Origin: a virus
DNA length: 64,000 nucleotides
Virus record (IMG/VR): IMGVR_UViG_3300037454_000906
Location: 32,001 to 96,000 of that record
Strand: one strand, 5' to 3'
The translations under genes and the position numbers were made by a program. Below the pieces are notes generated by a model, which was not told the origin of the DNA, did no database searches, and saw only the letters and a list, made by a program, of their open reading frames with translations. Below, one piece after another: positions 14,135 to 61,354 of the stretch. Positions within the stretch are counted from its first letter, which is position 1, and the number at the start of each line of letters is the position of its first letter.

Positions 14135-14516
14135 GGTACCTCCTGTGGTCATTGGTGCACACGCGGGCACCCCGTGTCCAACGATGGGGTCGTGGACATG
14201 GGTGCCCGTGTGTGCAGTGGTGGACCCCCGTGGTTCGCGGTGGCAACACGGGGGAAACGCTTGGTCGGCGGGGGGCGCGGGTACGGGGTAGCCGCCACGG
14301 TCATTCGGGGACCTGGGGGCCACCCCCTGTGAACGCAGGCCGTGCCCTGTCCGGCGACCTGTGCCTACGCTGTACCCCCGTGTCCCCCTCGATCTGGGAC
14401 ACTGGGTACACGGTGGGCATGGGGTCGCCGGGGGTCACTGGTCGCGGGAGGGGTGGTACACGGTGGGGATGGGCGGGCAGGGCGCGGCGGTGGAGCCTGG
14501 ACGGAGGTGGCGCCTG

Positions 14517-14803
14517 GGTTGTTAGCTGTTAATGAAAATGTTAATAAAATTTAACTAAACATACTTAAATATGCTAATGGAAATAATGTATATTTAGTTA
14601 TGCCTAGTTTGATATGCCGACCGTGTTAAGGCTCTTCAGTAATGAAGTAGGACTAGGCAAGTCAGCCGTGTTGCTTGATGCATATTAGGTATATCGCGTA
14701 GATACGGTTGATTAAGTGCCGTTACGGCCTACCCAGTGATGGGCAAGGTAGGAAATCACATAAGTCTATCTCTTGGTAGATTTAGGTAGGTTTCAGCTAA
14801 CGG
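14517..14803 (+). mobile_element. IS607-type mini-element copy 1 (no ORF; AT-rich left end plus omegaRNA-like scaffold)
   Basis: Near-identical to 39106..39393 and 56028..56313 (both inverted). Begins GGTTGTTAGC and ends TTTCAGCTAACGG. Shares CGACCGTGTTAAG, TGCCGTT(A/G)CG, TAGGAAATCAC and the end motif with the last ~190 nt of the tnpB element. Confidence 0.85.
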
Positions 14804-14820
14804 TGGAAAAATGAAAAATT

Positions 14821-38805: not shown

Positions 38806-39105
38806 CTAGTCCTCCTCGCTAACTCGCTTGTTACGTGGTTTCTTGCGCTTGTCAGGCACCTTCCGTGTGCGGAGCTTGCGCCCGTTCTCGGTCTCGGATA
38901 TGCGGATGGCGCGCTGCCCCTTGCTTTCTTTCCCGTCAACCGAAATTGAAATTGTGATTGTCATGTTCTTCATCGCTGACTCCTTGTTTCCGAACGCACC
39001 CACGATGTGCCGCCGGGGTCCACCGCCCGCGCATCCAGCGGCACACGGTGGCACCGGGGCGAAATTGAAAGAAAAAGTAAACTTTCGTTTACCCTTTCTT
39101 CCCTA

Positions 39106-39393
39106 CCGTTAACTGAAACCTACCTAAATCTACCACTAGGACAGACCTACGTGATTTCCTGCCTTGCCCATTGCTGAGTAGGCCGTAACGGCACTTAATC
39201 AACCGCATCTACGCGATATACCTAATATGCATCAAGCAACACGGCTGACTTGCCTAGTCCTACTCCATTACTGAAGAGCCTTAACACGGTCGGCATATCA
39301 AACTAGGCATTGTTAAATATACATTATTTCCATTAGCATATTTAAGTATATTTAGTTAAATGTTGTTAACATTTTCGTTAACTGCTAACAACC
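39106..39393 (-). mobile_element. IS607-type mini-element copy 2
   Basis: Inverted, slightly diverged copy of 14517..14803; flanks TG|GG...GG|T. Confidence 0.85.
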
Positions 39394-39644
39394 CACACAC
39401 CAAGCATGAATACCGCGAAGGCGCCACCGAGCATCGGATGTACCGAGTAGAGGTATCCGGTCACGACGAGCGCTCCGATGAATGCGAGGCACCCCATGGT
39501 CGCCCTACTTGCGCCTGCGGAACCTGCCGTAAAGGTCGGTGTTCCCGTTGGAGTGTACGTTCACGGGGCGCACAGAGGGCAGTCCCGCGCTCTTCGCGGC
39601 AAAGGAGGCGAATTTGAAAAATTTTGTGGAGATGAGTCTGAGCA

Positions 39645-50791: not shown

Positions 50792-52528
50792 ATGAGCAAG
50801 CATTGTTGGACATTGAAGGATCGGTATGAGTCGCAGTTCTCCGCTGCGTTCTATCCTATTCTATTGTCCGACACCAAGCGTGCCGAAATTACCCATCGTG
50901 CGGGGGAAATCCGTTCCGTAAGGAACGACATATCGGAAGTGTTCTTCTCGGATATGCTCGGCTTCCAGGATATGAGCAAGTTCGAGGCCTTTAACTTTTT
51001 CAATCCGACATTCAATACACGCCTATCTGGCCACTACTTGAAGAAGGCTATCGAGGATGTCTGGAAGGCATACCAATTACGGTTCGATGCGATCCGCAGG
51101 AAGATTGAGTTCGTCAAGGTTGAAGAGCTGGTTCCATCCTTTTACAAGATAAACACCCATGGGCATAGGAAAGGCGACCTTAAATCTATTGAAGTTCATA
51201 CCAAGAAGACAGAACTTACCAAAGTGCTGACTTGGCTTGCTCGATACGGCAAGAATGAAACCGTCTATTGGCTTGAATCCGTTATTCCTACCGTAGTAGA
51301 ATCCAAGCAGAAGTTCTATCGAGCTATACTTGATAAGATACGCAAATTTGGGTTTGACCGCCTCATGCGGTTGGCGCGGTCAAGAAGAACATCTGTATTT
51401 GCCGAATACGAGAAGCGTGGCAAGATTACCTTTGAATCGCTTACATTCTCTGGCCGTAGTCGTATCAAGCGTCCTATCGTGGATGCTCGCAGGAACGAGA
51501 CTGGTAAGTTCGATTACTTCATCGAGATTTCCTGGGATTGGAATGACCAAGGCTACCGTGGTGACAGCAAGAACACGCTATGCATGCCGTTCAAGTATAA
51601 CAAGGCATACCACCGTTCGTTGAACCGCTACTGCAACGGAACCGATACATCCTATACGATGGTAGTCCGAGGAAAGGACATCCATGTAGTTCTCGCAAGG
51701 GACGGCTACCGCTATAAGAATACTGACGAGATTACCGAAGAAAATACCGTCGGAATAGATGTCAATTCCAAGCACAACATGTTCGCATTGAGTACCGGTG
51801 AGTTCATCCCGAACGACGATGCCTTGATTGCCGACCTTGAAACCGAGTTGCTCAAGATAGACCGGAAGCAGAAGAACTACAACGTCAAATTCAAGGAAGA
51901 CGAAGAGCATGAAGCGTTCAAGATATCCAAGAAGGACAAGGCTCGCATCGAAGCTATTACATTGAAGCTGAACGAGTCCAACAAGCGAGCTATCGTACTG
52001 CTTTGCCAAGCATTTGCCGCTAAAGGAATCAAGCACATCGCAATGGAGAACCTCGATGGTTTCCAAGGCAGAAGGCTCCATGCTGATGACTCAAAAGGAT
52101 TTAATCTAGGAAGGTTGCATCTAAGGACTGGACTATCCTCGTTGAAGGACGAGTTCATCCATATTGCACCGCATTACGGACTGTCGGTTTCACTTGTGCA
52201 ACCCGAATACACTTCCAAGATGTGCGGTGAGTGCGGTTGCATCGACGACCGGAACCGCCAGACACAAGAAGAATTTTGCTGTGTTGAATGCCATCATGCG
52301 GAAAACGCGGATATTCATTCAGCCAAGAATATTAAAGTCCGTCTTACCTCGACCGTGTTAAGAGGGAACTTGCTCGAAAGGGCAGGGGATAGCGGATATA
52401 GGTACTTCCAGCCAAAGAGCTTGTTCAGGTGGCAAGTAAGGAAGTGCCTAGAAAAATGCCGTTGCGATGGTCTTCTCAAACGGACCATAGGAAATCACGA
52501 AAACCTTACTGTGAGTAGGTTTGAGTAG
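50792..52528 (+). CDS. tnpB: TnpB RNA-guided RuvC endonuclease (large, 578 aa)
   Basis: RuvC-I VGIDVN, RuvC-II IAMENL, V.PEYTSK.C..C...C..C Zn finger, RuvC-III NADIHSAKNI; all catalytic residues present. Confidence 0.92.
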   Translation: MSKHCWTLKDRYESQFSAAFYPILLSDTKRAEITHRAGEIRSVRNDISEVFFSDMLGFQDMSKFEAFNFFNPTFNTRLSGHYLKKAIEDVWKAYQLRFDAIRRKIEFVKVEELVPSFYKINTHGHRKGDLKSIEVHTKKTELTKVLTWLARYGKNETVYWLESVIPTVVESKQKFYRAILDKIRKFGFDRLMRLARSRRTSVFAEYEKRGKITFESLTFSGRSRIKRPIVDARRNETGKFDYFIEISWDWNDQGYRGDSKNTLCMPFKYNKAYHRSLNRYCNGTDTSYTMVVRGKDIHVVLARDGYRYKNTDEITEENTVGIDVNSKHNMFALSTGEFIPNDDALIADLETELLKIDRKQKNYNVKFKEDEEHEAFKISKKDKARIEAITLKLNESNKRAIVLLCQAFAAKGIKHIAMENLDGFQGRRLHADDSKGFNLGRLHLRTGLSSLKDEFIHIAPHYGLSVSLVQPEYTSKMCGECGCIDDRNRQTQEEFCCVECHHAENADIHSAKNIKVRLTSTVLRGNLLERAGDSGYRYFQPKSLFRWQVRKCLEKCRCDGLLKRTIGNHENLTVSRFE

Positions 52529-52542
52529 ATTTCAGTCAACGG
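52350..52542 (+). ncRNA. Predicted omegaRNA (reRNA) scaffold of the tnpB element
   Basis: Overlaps the tnpB 3' end and right end, as is typical for TnpB systems; homologous blocks are conserved in the three mini-elements. Confidence 0.6.
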
Positions 52543-52668
52543 TAGCATGCATGTCGTCGGGCACGGTAATCATGTCCCGGAGGAACTTGCACAGTTCAGG
52601 GAAAGTTGTCGGCATGCGCTTGACTAAGTCGGATAACACCGGATTGTATATTTTATCCATATGACGCC

Positions 52669-55438: not shown

Positions 55439-55467
55439 AATGTAGCAAAAAGGGCCCGGTTTGACAA
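55439..55467 (-). promoter_or_regulatory. Sigma70-type promoter with extended -10
   Basis: TTGTCA-N17-TACATT with TG immediately upstream (TGC-TACATT). Confidence 0.7.
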
Positions 55468-55475
55468 CCGGACCC
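55447..55475 (-). terminator. Intrinsic terminator at the trailer end of the CRISPR array
   Basis: GGGTCCGGTT-GTCA-AACCGGGCCC-TTTTT; overlaps the -35 box of the next promoter. Confidence 0.7.
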
Positions 55476-55514: not shown

Positions 55515-55991
55515 GTCGTCCCCGGGCTTCAAACTACGCCCGGTTCGAGCAAGATTCTGGAACGCAACGGCTGCTGTCCTCGGGTTTCAAACTACGCCCG
55601 GTTCGAGCTTCAGACCTAAAAATGCCCATTTTAGGGTGCTGTCTCCGGGCTTCAAACTACGCCCGGTTCGAGCAGTCGGAAAAATACATGTACAAACTGC
55701 CTGGCTGTCTCCAAGTTTCAAACTACACCCGGTTCGAGCGCCTCTTAAAATACCCCAGCTGTCCCCGGGTTTCAAACTACACCCGGTTCGAGCTTAACTG
55801 ACAGAACATCTTCTGTCCAGCCTGCTGTCCCTGGGTTTCAAACTACACCCGGTTCGAGCTAACAACGATGTAATAGGTGTCACTTGGGGGCTGTCCCTGG
55901 GTTTCAGACTACACCCGGTTCGAGCGAACTTTTACGGCCTTCTCGCTTTGATGATGCTGTCCCTGGGTTTCAGACTACACCCGGTTCGAGC
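55515..55991 (-). CRISPR. CRISPR array: 8 repeats (36 nt) and 7 spacers
   Basis: Repeat on + strand GCTGTCCCCGGGTTTCAAACTACACCCGGTTCGAGC at 55515, 55573, 55638, 55704, 55758, 55824, 55890, 55956; spacers of 22, 29, 30, 18, 30, 30, 30 nt. The degenerate repeat and terminator on the left imply minus-strand transcription (GCTCGAACCGGGTGTAGTTTGAAACCCGGGGACAGC, with CCGGGT/ACCCGG stem). Confidence 0.97.
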
Positions 55992-56027
55992 ACATTTTGC
56001 ATAAGTCCCCGTTGGCCAAATAGTTAA

Positions 56028-56313
56028 CCGTTAACTGAAACCTACCTAAATCTACCAAGAGATAGACTTATGTGATTTCCTACCTTGCCCATCACTGGGT
56101 AGGCCGTAACGGCACTTAATCAACCGTATCTACGCGATATACCTAATATGCATCAAGCAACACGGCTGACTTGCCTAGTCCTACTCCATTACTGAAGAGC
56201 CTTAACACGGTCGGCATATCAAACTAGGCATTATTAAATATACATTATTTCCATTGCATATTTAAGTATGTTTAGTTAAATTTTATTAACATTTTCATTA
56301 ACAGCTAACAACC
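56028..56313 (-). mobile_element. IS607-type mini-element copy 3, in the CRISPR leader
   Basis: Near-identical to copy 1; lies 32 bp after the cas stop and 36 bp before the first repeat, co-oriented with both. Confidence 0.88.
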
Positions 56314-56345
56314 CACATAAAATAATAAAAAACTGGCATTCAAGA

Positions 56346-59030
56346 TTACCTGAACATGAATTTCTGGTTCTTCACACAGCATGCGCTATTCTCGTCGGCA
56401 TACTGGTACATGCCGTACCAGGGAGACTCCGGTACGAATGTGATGAACGTGCGTCCACTGCGGTAGTTCCACCCGTTCATGCGGCATCCTTCGATTCCTG
56501 CAGTCCGTACCTTGGCCTTTGTGACCGTCTTGGGCAAGCCCACCATCGTGTAGTGGTCGGTGAATGACGTGCCCCTCTTGTCAACTGTTCCGAAGAGGAT
56601 CTTTCGCTTGGCGCACATCTTCTCCATAGCCTTGCCCTCTATGGATATGTGGAGAGACTTGATCAACCTGCCGTCGGCCCTGGCAATCGCTCTTAGCTCG
56701 ATGAATTCCCTGGTGGCGGAGCATTTCATCTTCACCGCACCGTTCCTTACGTAAACCTTGTCACATACCCAGAGGTCACTGCAGCGGTCGGCAGCGTTCT
56801 TTATGGTCTTTGCGGTATGGCCCTTGGGGCACGGGAACGTCACGTCAGCGGAATACCCATCTGGGGAAAACGTGATGTCCGGGATGAAGTCCGCGCCTTC
56901 AAACCATCCCTTGGTGATAACTCTAAAGAGACTCTTCACCTTGCGGTCCTTCTCTCCGTTGAAATTGAGGTCATTTTCCATCTTGATGACCTTCAGGCGC
57001 TTCTTGCCGAATTCCGTATCAAGGAAACAGATAGAACGGATGCGTGCCATGTTGCTGTCGATGCGGTTGTCTATGGCATGGCGCTCGTTCAGGAGTGCCG
57101 CGGCTTCCGCCGTTTCCGAGAACTTGCCGGTATGTTTGAGGGACCATTCGGACTGTTTGGCGTAGTATCTCTCGTAGCCGACAATCTGTTCCTTGATCAG
57201 CCTGCGCTGGATGAAGGTGTAATCCACGATTTCGCGCTTCCTGGTGCCGCTATGGTACTTGCTGCGGAGATAAGCGAAGAAGCCGACGAGAGGATCCACG
57301 GGGGTCTTCCACCCGTTCTCCCTGATACCAACGAGTCCATAACGGATGCCAAGTGTCAGCATGAATGCATAGCGGTGAACACTGTCCTTCTTCGGTCGTT
57401 CGTGGACGGCGCGGTACATGACTTCGAGTTCGCCAATGACCGCGTCGATTTCCCTGCGGCACAAGGTGGTGCGGGCAAGTTCCTTCTCGATTATCCCGTT
57501 ATCATGGAACTTCTCGTAATATTCGGCCAGCTCGCCTACCCAGTCGACAACGTCGCCCATGAGGTTTACTGGAATCGACGTGTTGTAAAAGAAAACCGCG
57601 GTATTGAGGTCGATGCCAACCACCGATTCCTTGTCCATCTTGGTCTCGTCGCTAATCTTGATTTCGGTGGATTCCACGCTTCCCGCAACCGATCCCGTGA
57701 ATTCGGCATGTCTAGGGCACTTGCGGAACCCGGTGGGGGAAATAATGTCTTCGGGCATGAAGGCGGACTTGGGCAGGGACACCGTGACCGTGGGCGTTTC
57801 CTTGAGTGCCTTCTCGATGCCGGCGAAATAGGGGAACTTGCCGACCCTGGACTGGGAACGGGTCTTCATGAGGAGCGTAGCGGAAGCACATTCGTCGCCG
57901 GTCACCGGAAGCTGCGGGATAACCAGTTCGGAATTGTAGTATCCGTCCTTGTGCACGTCGAGGTTCACGATGCAGTGGTCCATGGGGACTGCTGTGTTGT
58001 CGGAGAGCTTGACACACCCCATGTTTTCGATGAACACCCGCATCGCCGCACGGTAGGCCTTGTTGAACTTTTCGATGTCCGTTGGCTTTTCAATCTTTAC
58101 CTTCTTGCCACATACCTTGGCGTAGGGGAACGCATCCTCCCCATTCTTGTTCTTCTTGTCCCATATGGCCAGGGACGGCATTCGCTTGTTTAGGTACGAA
58201 TGGGTGTCGGGCCCGACCTGCTCCAGTTGGGCGGCGAGCATCTGAACATTTTCCGGCATGTGTTTCCAGTTGTCGAATTTCCGCTCAGGATCGTCGCCGT
58301 TCCACCCGAGGGACAGCTTGATGGAATTGCGGAACAGCTTGTCGTCGTAACCTTCCCCCACGTTACGGAGCATCTTCGCGCCGACAAAGGCGCGTAGCTT
58401 CCCGTTGACCATCGTGTTCACGATTGCGCCGGATACGAATGCGGAAGCGCAGAACTGCATTTCGTCGGGGTCGATGCCGGCGAGGGCCGCATAGGACTTC
58501 CTCAGCACGGATTCGACATCGCTGGTAGTGACGCCGAAAAGTTTCCGGTAATAACCGCTGGGGCTGAACAGGGAATACGAGAGGTATGCCCCCTGGCGCA
58601 GGTGGGTGACCGGGATCTCGATATCCCTGCCACGGATCTTGGCCACATGGCATTCCTTTCCCCTGGTCTTTCCGATAATGCGCCCATCGGACATTACGAC
58701 ATCGAAGTTGTTCTTGTATTCGTTGAGTGCCTGGTTACGGAGGTCATACAGGTCCCAGATGTAGAACTTTTCGTACCGCCCGTCCTTGAGCCTGATGTCG
58801 ATCGTATCAAAAAAGTGCTTGCCGATTGTTTCCACCGCAAACTTTGCAGCGGATACAGCCGCCTTCGATAGGTTGCTTATCCTCGTGGCATCGGTTTCAT
58901 TCATTGCGGCAATTTCGCACTTGTAGCCCCGAGTCTTCTTGTTTGCTTCGGGCGCGAAGGTGGAATAGGTGATTCCCCTATTCACACGGACCGTCGGTTC
59001 TATTTTCGGTTTACTGCGTTTCATTTTCAC
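56346..59030 (-). CDS. cas12: Type V CRISPR effector, Cas12 family, divergent Cas-lambda-like (894 aa)
   Basis: RuvC-I VVGIDLN, RuvC-II IKMENDL, GTSFTDH, RuvC-III YADENSA; no Zn finger; adjacent to the array. Segments GYYRKLFG, MGCVK, YYAKQSE...FSET, IKSLH recall Cas-lambda (from memory; needs alignment). Confidence 0.85.
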   Translation of the reverse strand: MKMKRSKPKIEPTVRVNRGITYSTFAPEANKKTRGYKCEIAAMNETDATRISNLSKAAVSAAKFAVETIGKHFFDTIDIRLKDGRYEKFYIWDLYDLRNQALNEYKNNFDVVMSDGRIIGKTRGKECHVAKIRGRDIEIPVTHLRQGAYLSYSLFSPSGYYRKLFGVTTSDVESVLRKSYAALAGIDPDEMQFCASAFVSGAIVNTMVNGKLRAFVGAKMLRNVGEGYDDKLFRNSIKLSLGWNGDDPERKFDNWKHMPENVQMLAAQLEQVGPDTHSYLNKRMPSLAIWDKKNKNGEDAFPYAKVCGKKVKIEKPTDIEKFNKAYRAAMRVFIENMGCVKLSDNTAVPMDHCIVNLDVHKDGYYNSELVIPQLPVTGDECASATLLMKTRSQSRVGKFPYFAGIEKALKETPTVTVSLPKSAFMPEDIISPTGFRKCPRHAEFTGSVAGSVESTEIKISDETKMDKESVVGIDLNTAVFFYNTSIPVNLMGDVVDWVGELAEYYEKFHDNGIIEKELARTTLCRREIDAVIGELEVMYRAVHERPKKDSVHRYAFMLTLGIRYGLVGIRENGWKTPVDPLVGFFAYLRSKYHSGTRKREIVDYTFIQRRLIKEQIVGYERYYAKQSEWSLKHTGKFSETAEAAALLNERHAIDNRIDSNMARIRSICFLDTEFGKKRLKVIKMENDLNFNGEKDRKVKSLFRVITKGWFEGADFIPDITFSPDGYSADVTFPCPKGHTAKTIKNAADRCSDLWVCDKVYVRNGAVKMKCSATREFIELRAIARADGRLIKSLHISIEGKAMEKMCAKRKILFGTVDKRGTSFTDHYTMVGLPKTVTKAKVRTAGIEGCRMNGWNYRSGRTFITFVPESPWYGMYQYADENSACCVKNQKFMFR

Positions 59031-60501: not shown

Positions 60502-60963
60502 TTAATCGTTCCGGTGTTCCTTCGATTTGTATTTCTTGATTTTCAGTTCCATCTCGTTATGATAATCGTCCATCACGTGTCGGTAGAATGCCGAATCATG
60601 CAACCACTTGCCGTATTGCTTAAGGCATTCCGCATCGGTACTGTTCGCGGCGAGGCATGCCGGGCGCTCATTCATTATTCGCGCGTAGCTCCTGTCTATC
60701 ATGGTGGCATGCGATGGGGTGTAGGCAAAACATAGGAGACCTGCGCCAAAACTGAGTATGAAAAGGAACGCAAATAATTCCTCCCGAAATATGATGGTAA
60801 TCACCAGAAATACCGTGGAGAGTATCCCGAAGATGATCATGCTCCATACGAACGTATCGCAGTACATGTTTCCGAATGCATCAACTAGGAACTTGTAGAC
60901 GAACATGGAAAATTTCCTCCAATCTTTTTCACCAAATATAGCAACACTATACCAGGTTGCCAA
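60502..60963 (-). CDS. Membrane protein with two TM helices
   Basis: Two hydrophobic segments (WSMIIFGILSTVFLVITIIF; LFAFLFILSFGAGLLCFAY). Confidence 0.75.
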   Translation of the reverse strand: MATWYSVAIFGEKDWRKFSMFVYKFLVDAFGNMYCDTFVWSMIIFGILSTVFLVITIIFREELFAFLFILSFGAGLLCFAYTPSHATMIDRSYARIMNERPACLAANSTDAECLKQYGKWLHDSAFYRHVMDDYHNEMELKIKKYKSKEHRND

Positions 60964-61354
60964 CTCTGGTCATTGGTGTGCCAGCGTGCGCCACCTCATA
61001 TTCAGTGCAATCACCCAGCCACGAGGCAACTATGTGACGGTGGCAGAAATCACCGGGCCGTTCGAAGCACAGCAGTACGATCTTGGTACAATCTGTGCCG
61101 GTGAGGTACGTCAGGTCCCGCTTGACCTTCTCACGATCCAGGCGCCCGAGAATTTCCTCCGTGAAGCGGCGAACGTAATGTCCAGTGTCATCCTTGAAGT
61201 TACCGTACCGGTATCCGTTGAGTATGGATGCCGAGGGGGCCAGTAATGGGTACCGCAGGCCGTCAAACCATACTGGGGGATGCAGTGATATGGCAACGGG
61301 GACCAGCCCGCAATCGGCATAGTGCTTTGCTTTCGCGTAGTATCCCGTGTACAT
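60947..61354 (-). CDS. DUF488-family protein
   Basis: MYTGYYAK...PVAIS...LAPS...IVLLCFERPGDFCHRHIVASWL. Confidence 0.8.
   Translation of the reverse strand: MYTGYYAKAKHYADCGLVPVAISLHPPVWFDGLRYPLLAPSASILNGYRYGNFKDDTGHYVRRFTEEILGRLDREKVKRDLTYLTGTDCTKIVLLCFERPGDFCHRHIVASWLGDCTEYEVAHAGTPMTRVGNLV

Follow-up and report, generated by a model that had tools for sequence, protein, structure and literature searches.

Cas-lambda, a type V effector of clustered regularly interspaced short palindromic repeat (CRISPR) systems that is called Cas12l or Cas12n depending on the author, is the best full-length structural match of the protein analysed here. The scaffold of Cas-lambda2 has been described as 36 nucleotides (nt) long, with a terminal stem next to the guide; it has a two-purine junction and a stem-loop with a U-rich loop, and neither a pseudoknot nor a trans-activating CRISPR RNA (tracrRNA). 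Cas-lambda2 has its RuvC-I aspartate at D324 in 741 amino acids (aa), its equivalent of the zinc-ribbon domain is described without a zinc site, and the enzyme cuts double-stranded DNA (PMC12141684). Homologues accepted as Cas-lambda in the CHOOSER study are 735-798 aa long and match PDB entry 8DC2 at E<=1e-10; the study also reports an uncharacterised IMG/VR 'clade 4' of 628-1052 aa between Cas12h and Cas-lambda. Here we describe an effector gene and CRISPR array from a 64,000-nt stretch of viral DNA (the window; bases 32001-96000 of the 253,117-bp IMG/VR virus record IMGVR_UViG_3300037454_000906, rated 99% complete). The locus is probably a functional type V CRISPR-Cas module, carried by a jumbo phage and independent of a tracrRNA, with an effector from a distinct family whose nearest structural match is Cas-lambda.

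The effector gene and its array

Gene and array lie on the minus strand of the window, and the catalytic residues were placed by family alignment:

56346-59030, minus strand: effector gene, an 894-codon open reading frame (ORF) from a GTG; a probable ATG start at 59024 gives 892 aa
57609-57611, minus strand: RuvC-I aspartate D474 (GIDLN)
56976-56978, minus strand: RuvC-II glutamate E685 (KMENDL)
56394-56396, minus strand: RuvC-III aspartate D879 (ADENSA)
55515-55991, minus strand: CRISPR array with eight 36-nt repeats and seven spacers, downstream of the gene; its cas-proximal end is the leader end

The ATG at 59024, two codons inside the ORF, is preceded by a GAGAG ribosome-binding site, which the GTG start overlaps. 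Since the near relatives of the effector are also 892 aa long, 892 aa is the likely length of the product rather than 894 aa. Small ORFs on the same strand precede the gene, almost without gaps.

D474, E685 and D879 fall in the conserved family blocks GIDxN, MED and NADxNAA, which are the columns of the split RuvC I, II and III motifs, and the triad is complete in the window effector; 12 of 13 full-length family members that were examined have it too. An earlier interpretation made from the letters alone (the sequence-only reading) had reported an 894-aa protein with an intact D/E/D RuvC triad, longer than the ~750 aa of described Cas-lambda proteins, and both observations hold against the family alignment and the accepted homologues. 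RuvC-III lies 15 aa from the C-terminus of the effector and 15-45 aa from it in the other relatives with a placeable motif. Comparison with the 89%-identical gene of locus L001 gave a ratio of non-synonymous to synonymous substitution rates (dN/dS) of 0.16 at a dS of 0.33, indicating that the effector is kept by purifying selection. A single large split-RuvC effector (D/E/D) thus stands beside a CRISPR array, and Cas12 folds fill its structural match lists, as is characteristic of type V.

The array was found where it had been read from the sequence, with eight repeats downstream of the gene and on its strand (55991 to 55515), and the repeat that had been quoted is exactly repeat 4 (window:55758-55793:-). 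No other such array occurs in the whole record. The record-wide search also extended the earlier claim that cas1, cas2 and cas4 are missing from the 64 kb: neither Cas1 (PF01867) nor Cas4 (PF01930) was matched across the 253-kb record. One candidate for Cas2, a 153-aa ORF upstream of the effector (60502-60963, minus strand), scored 14.6-15.1 bits against a cut-off of 23.8; this sub-threshold match spans residues 111-149 (Pfam-wide E 0.038) and was treated as chance.

Relatives and predicted fold of the effector

When 1.84 billion representatives were searched exhaustively with HMMER, 12 clusters of relatives of 797-929 aa were recovered, and two further members are encoded on phage contigs in IMG/VR (222 and 253 kb); a profile search of a 5.8-billion-protein set found nothing past close relatives. 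The nearest neighbours of the effector are 97% and 37% identical to it, and the remaining members 25-32%. In all 12 loci with downstream DNA (the window, L016, L001, L003/4, L005/6, L007, L008, L010, L011, L012, L013 and L015), which are spread across five deep subclades, an array follows the effector on the gene's strand. Family arrays have 36-nt repeats, 30-nt spacers and a degenerate repeat at the trailer end. The array begins 13-70 nt past the stop codon in the eight related loci measured, often only 13-15 nt past it, and a gap this short argues for co-transcription and leaves no room there for a tracrRNA.

Some relatives depart from the common pattern. The protein P0013 of L012 (L012:2501-5275) has an asparagine in place of the RuvC-III aspartate, yet a 17-repeat array is kept beside it (L012:5289-6376); judged from this substitution, it may be a nuclease-dead, binding-only variant. 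At L005 (6510-7247) and at L006, an intact effector gene lies beside a degenerate array with diverged repeats and irregular spacing of 25-184 nt, which looks like an array in decay.

The zinc ribbon of the Cas12f1-like target-nucleic-acid-binding (TNB) domain, PF07282, was matched by 11 of the 14 family members. All four of its Cys/His zinc ligands are replaced in the window effector and its three nearest relatives, whereas the other members have them; in the family tree, the zinc-less proteins make up one of five deep subclades. The sequence-only reading had noted that a TnpB zinc finger was absent; on the pattern of ligands and the tree, this absence is a secondary loss in the window subclade, within a family that otherwise has the ribbon.

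The effector protein alone had no match in Pfam, NCBIfam, PADLOC or PHROGs, and a phmmer search of PDB sequences returned a chance match only. Profiles of the family (A1 and A4) matched, among PDB sequences, only the zinc-ribbon/RuvC-III region of TnpB, Cas12f, Cas12m, Cas12c and Cas12p (E 2e-8 to 1e-4). A full-length AlphaFold2 model was built on the family alignment, with a mean predicted local distance difference test score (pLDDT) of 75.5. Foldseek searches of the PDB with this model were led by Cas-lambda2 (9IZM/Q/R/P) and Cas-lambda1 (8DC2) at E values of 6e-13 to 1e-10, followed by Cas12b at 1.7e-5. VIA-align superposed residues 32-894 of the model on residues 1-703 of the Cas-lambda chain with a Z of 23-24 (478-588 residues aligned, 13-14% identity); for every other Cas12, TnpB or Fanzor structure Z was <=12.3, the next best being Cas12p at 12.3. 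The structure search that the sequence-only reading had proposed thus placed Cas-lambda1/2 by far nearest among solved folds, with TnpB within the lower group. The best match in BFVD was an unnamed 756-aa viral protein (E 1.6e-15; next 1.7e-4), and a fold search of ESM-Atlas with the full model retrieved no more than weak TnpB-type entries. In a feature search, a 'CasLambda family' cluster stood among tied matches at 0.93, and we regard it as a lead only.

Repeat RNA, spacers and the gene-array junction

Sixteen repeats from 8 loci align without gaps, and share a structure in which positions 1-4 pair with 33-36 and 7-14 with 23-30, so that a terminal stem closes a stem-loop with a U-rich loop. 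In this arrangement 85% of cells are paired, compared to 33-48% in slid-partner controls, and 10 of the 12 pairs change on both sides. Single-sequence thermodynamic folds agree with the covariation structure. The terminal stem of the window repeat is 3-4 bp long. No anti-repeat was detected within 5 kb of the window locus, and no known RNA family from Rfam in the array or leader. The repeat had been called unusual in being GC-rich; it is indeed high in G+C in the window, but this is a trait of the lineage and not of the family, as relatives with lower G+C have the same fold.

A metagenome scan with spacer 2 recovered no target and instead a sister array, on a 334.6-kb contig (L016) with a 92%-identical effector. 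The six trailer-side spacers of L016 are spacers 2-7 of the window, including those of 18 nt and 22 nt, and the cas-proximal spacers differ, one being unique to the window and two to L016. Six old spacers are therefore common to both arrays and the cas-proximal ones are not, a pattern expected from spacer acquisition at a gene-adjacent leader; on this comparison of two arrays, it indicates recent acquisition at the leader end in phages lacking their own adaptation genes. In 185,579 species genomes screened for a host array built on the window repeat, there were 81 single matches, in unrelated taxa and none in tandem, which were attributed to chance. In L011 (4886-5017), the leader-end spacer is duplicated, repeat-spacer units one and two being 100% identical.

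The window spacers measure, in order, 30, 30, 30, 18, 30, 29 and 22 nt. There are five repeat variants among the eight repeats, and the final repeat is degenerate in its 3' portion. Gene and array are 354 nt apart, and ~286 nt of this distance is a recent insertion, as seen by comparison with L016 and L001:

56315-56345, minus strand: 5' part of the native gene-array junction, ~31 nt, collinear with the 69-70-nt junction of L016 and L001
56029-56314, minus strand: inserted repeat element, ~286 bp; the same site is empty in L016 and L001
55992-56028, minus strand: 3' part of the native junction/leader, ending where repeat 1 begins
55452-55475, minus strand: strong intrinsic-terminator-like hairpin with a 10-bp stem (7 G-C pairs) followed by a T run, ~40 nt past the last repeat

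The inserted element is non-coding and is present as three copies of ~286-290 bp in the window, the other two at 14515-14804 (plus strand, 98%) and 39105-39397 (minus strand, 94%). The 3' 56 nt of the inserted copy are 75% like the 3' end (52488-52543) of a tnpB-like gene, a resemblance which suggests that the element is a protein-less derivative of a tnpB-like element. This tnpB-like gene (50792-52528, plus strand) encodes a 578-aa TnpB/Cas12f-like protein (PF07282 E 1e-11; phrog_506 transposase). It is on the strand opposite to the array, 3 kb away, and its protein is like the effector only at the RuvC motifs.

Further features adjoin the effector loci. Upstream of the cas operon region, at a distance of two genes, the window encodes a 135-aa protein of the 'active DUF488-N3' subclade (60947-61354, minus strand; PF22751 E 9e-12). 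Paired direct repeats with tRNA T-arm-like sequence adjoin the effector loci in L010 (1305-1424) and L015 (6470-6582), and are probably tandem tRNA genes, to judge from that motif.

Interpretation and comparison with known systems

By analogy with Cas-lambda1/2, the array would be co-transcribed with the effector gene, the two being on the same strand and bounded by the terminator. The effector would bind each repeat hairpin and trim the precursor crRNA (CRISPR RNA) with its own RuvC site, and the crRNA would then guide double-stranded DNA cutting by the same site, dependent on a protospacer-adjacent motif (PAM). In Cas-lambda, RuvC trims the precursor within the spacer, the PAM is TTR and the two DNA strands are cut with a stagger. 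The likely use of such a module would be against rival phages or other mobile elements in a shared host, and spacers would probably be added in trans by the Cas1-Cas2 of the host. The ~286-bp insert would lengthen the gene-array co-transcript and need not abolish it.

Several results weigh against a working module with kinship to Cas-lambda. Neither phmmer nor the A1 and A4 profiles gave a Cas-lambda chain at E<=10 among PDB sequences, so that sequence methods do not tie the family to Cas-lambda, and the earlier impression that several segments match Cas-lambda in sequence was not upheld. The N-terminal half modelled alone (pLDDT 79; predicted template modelling score, pTM, 0.80) aligned with Cas-lambda2 at a Z of 10.0 over 269 residues, tied with Cas12X2 (10.0) and Cas12f (9.5). 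As this half does not discriminate among Cas12s, the specific resemblance to Cas-lambda sits mainly in the nuclease half of the model, and the signal of kinship comes from that half and from a mid-confidence model drawn from only 14 sequences. Protospacers were found neither in the phage's own genome and the family loci nor, by blastn, in GenBank phages; five spacer 22-mers had no target among IMG/VR viral contigs, and spacer 1 none in JGI metagenomes or species genomes. To judge from the leader insertion, its heterogeneous repeats and two spacers of reduced length, the window array could be poorly expressed. Taken further, the insert may have severed the array from transcription and left it as a relic in a decaying module. 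It lies exactly at the gene-array junction, at a site empty in L016 and L001; the repeat variants (five in eight), the 18- and 22-nt spacers and the degenerate last repeat fit such decay, and the related L005/L006 lineage has a clearly degenerate array. However, the effector is intact and under purifying selection, the short spacers and repeat variants are common to L016 and therefore older than the insertion, the window owns a unique leader-side spacer, and no terminator-like site turned up within the insert in a consensus scan. We consider decay of the window module rather improbable.

The effector could also be nothing more than a long member of described Cas-lambda, or of a phage type V family that is catalogued and unnamed; a 2022 Cell paper by Al-Shayeb reportedly lists 44 phage type V-related families. 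Cas-lambda is well ahead of all other structural matches and shares the crRNA architecture and phage niche, and 'clade 4' of CHOOSER could, compared by description, overlap the window effector family. Accepted Cas-lambda homologues are nevertheless shorter and match 8DC2 at an E value that the family does not approach, identity in the structural alignments is 13-14%, and most members carry the PF07282 zinc ribbon and canonical RuvC motifs, whereas the RuvC of Cas-lambda is described as unrecognisable from sequence; we regard assignment to a described family as unlikely, if worth keeping in view. Loss of the zinc ribbon of the target-nucleic-acid-binding domain in the window subclade, together with the array kept beside the RuvC-III-substituted P0013, would suit an effector that binds without cutting double-stranded DNA, a silencer or nickase like Cas12m, Cas12c or Cas12k. 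Against this stand the complete D474/E685/D879 triad, here and in nearly all of the full-length members, and Cas-lambda2 itself, which cuts double-stranded DNA and is described with no zinc site in the equivalent domain (PMC12141684); a binding-only role for the window effector is quite improbable. That the protein is a transposon-type TnpB nuclease with repeats beside it by coincidence seems scarcely tenable. The family profiles do match only TnpB/Cas12f-type C-terminal domains in the PDB, and the window holds a tnpB-like gene and related small elements, but the effector is about twice the size of TnpB (894 versus about 400 aa), its likeness to the window's own tnpB-like protein is confined to the RuvC motifs, all 12 loci, from five deep subclades, have an array after the gene, the repeats covary as an RNA fold and the spacers turn over. 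TnpB accessory nucleases of IS200-IS605 elements are characterised by about 400 aa, an omega RNA, transposon ends and no array, a description that the 894-aa effector and its array do not fit.

A working phage module with a distinct effector is the more probable reading. A bolder proposal, for which the case is somewhat short of even, is that the family forms its own type V subtype and is a missing link for Cas-lambda, combining canonical RuvC motifs and a zinc ribbon kept from TnpB/Cas12f-type ancestors with the nuclease-lobe fold and crRNA architecture of Cas-lambda, the ribbon being in the course of loss in the window subclade. If so, a PAM rule of its own, an enlarged recognition lobe and arrays fed in trans by host adaptation enzymes would be expected. 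Where Cas-lambda came from is obscure, since sequence hardly reveals its RuvC, and a family with readable motifs and a zinc ribbon that is lost in one subclade may offer a path for tracing it. In practical terms, the protein would be another crRNA-only, self-contained effector of <900 aa with a defined 36-nt scaffold and probably a different PAM, and hence a candidate editor. Turnover of leader-end spacers in phages without cas1/cas2 would also make a clear-cut system in which to study spacer acquisition by phage arrays.

Among known systems, Cas-phi (Cas12j) is likewise a compact type V effector of huge phages; it is crRNA-only, as the window effector probably is, and processes its own crRNA with RuvC. 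Structurally, it is a far weaker match to the window effector (Z 9-11, Foldseek E 0.06). Cas-delta (NAR 2025, PMC12721324) is similar in size (867-936 aa), in its repeats of ~36 nt and in its origin from JGI metagenomes, and is tracrRNA-free, as the window system probably is. By its description, however, Cas-delta-1 has RuvC-III at D783, well inside the protein and followed by an essential C-terminal loop, and is nearest to Cas12b by topology (PMC12721324), whereas in the window effector RuvC-III is followed by 15 aa only. Cas12f and TnpB (PF07282 TNB; PDB 9NZO, 9NZP and 7C7L) provide the sole sequence-level matches of the family profiles, but they are only half as large, depend on a long tracrRNA or omega RNA, are dimeric in the case of Cas12f, and reach a structural Z of ~10-11 compared to 24 for Cas-lambda; zinc ligands of their type are gone from the window effector.

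Cas-lambda1/2 (PDB 8DC2; 9IZM-9IZS) and the window system are alike in being encoded by huge phages without adaptation genes and in having a single RuvC site. The crRNA of Cas-lambda2 resembles the family repeats in its 36-nt length, terminal stem, stem-loop and U-rich loop and in the lack of a pseudoknot. The terminal stem is formed here by the first repeat nucleotides, with 3-4 bp and two-nucleotide junctions on both sides, and in Cas-lambda by a 5-bp stem starting at -33. The stretch from RuvC-I to the C-terminus is ~420 aa in both proteins, and with the RuvC-I aspartate at 474 of 894 residues here, compared to 324 of 741 in Cas-lambda2, the ~150 extra aa all precede RuvC-I, in the half holding the wedge and recognition (WED/REC) domains. 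Cas-lambda differs in showing no detectable sequence similarity to the window effector, whose family falls outside the similarity of about E 1e-10 to 8DC2_A used by CHOOSER; in its size (735-798 aa versus 892-894 aa here and 797-929 aa in the family); and in its RuvC motifs, which are canonical here and accompanied by a zinc ribbon in most relatives. The effector family is apparently uncharacterised. The guarded conclusion of the sequence-only reading, a minimal phage system with a new Cas-lambda clade or type V subtype, is supported by the fold, the crRNA architecture and the lack of an adaptation module. On the modelled structure, the family is related to Cas-lambda by its predicted fold and guide architecture, and is distinct from it by sequence, size and retained TnpB-type motifs.

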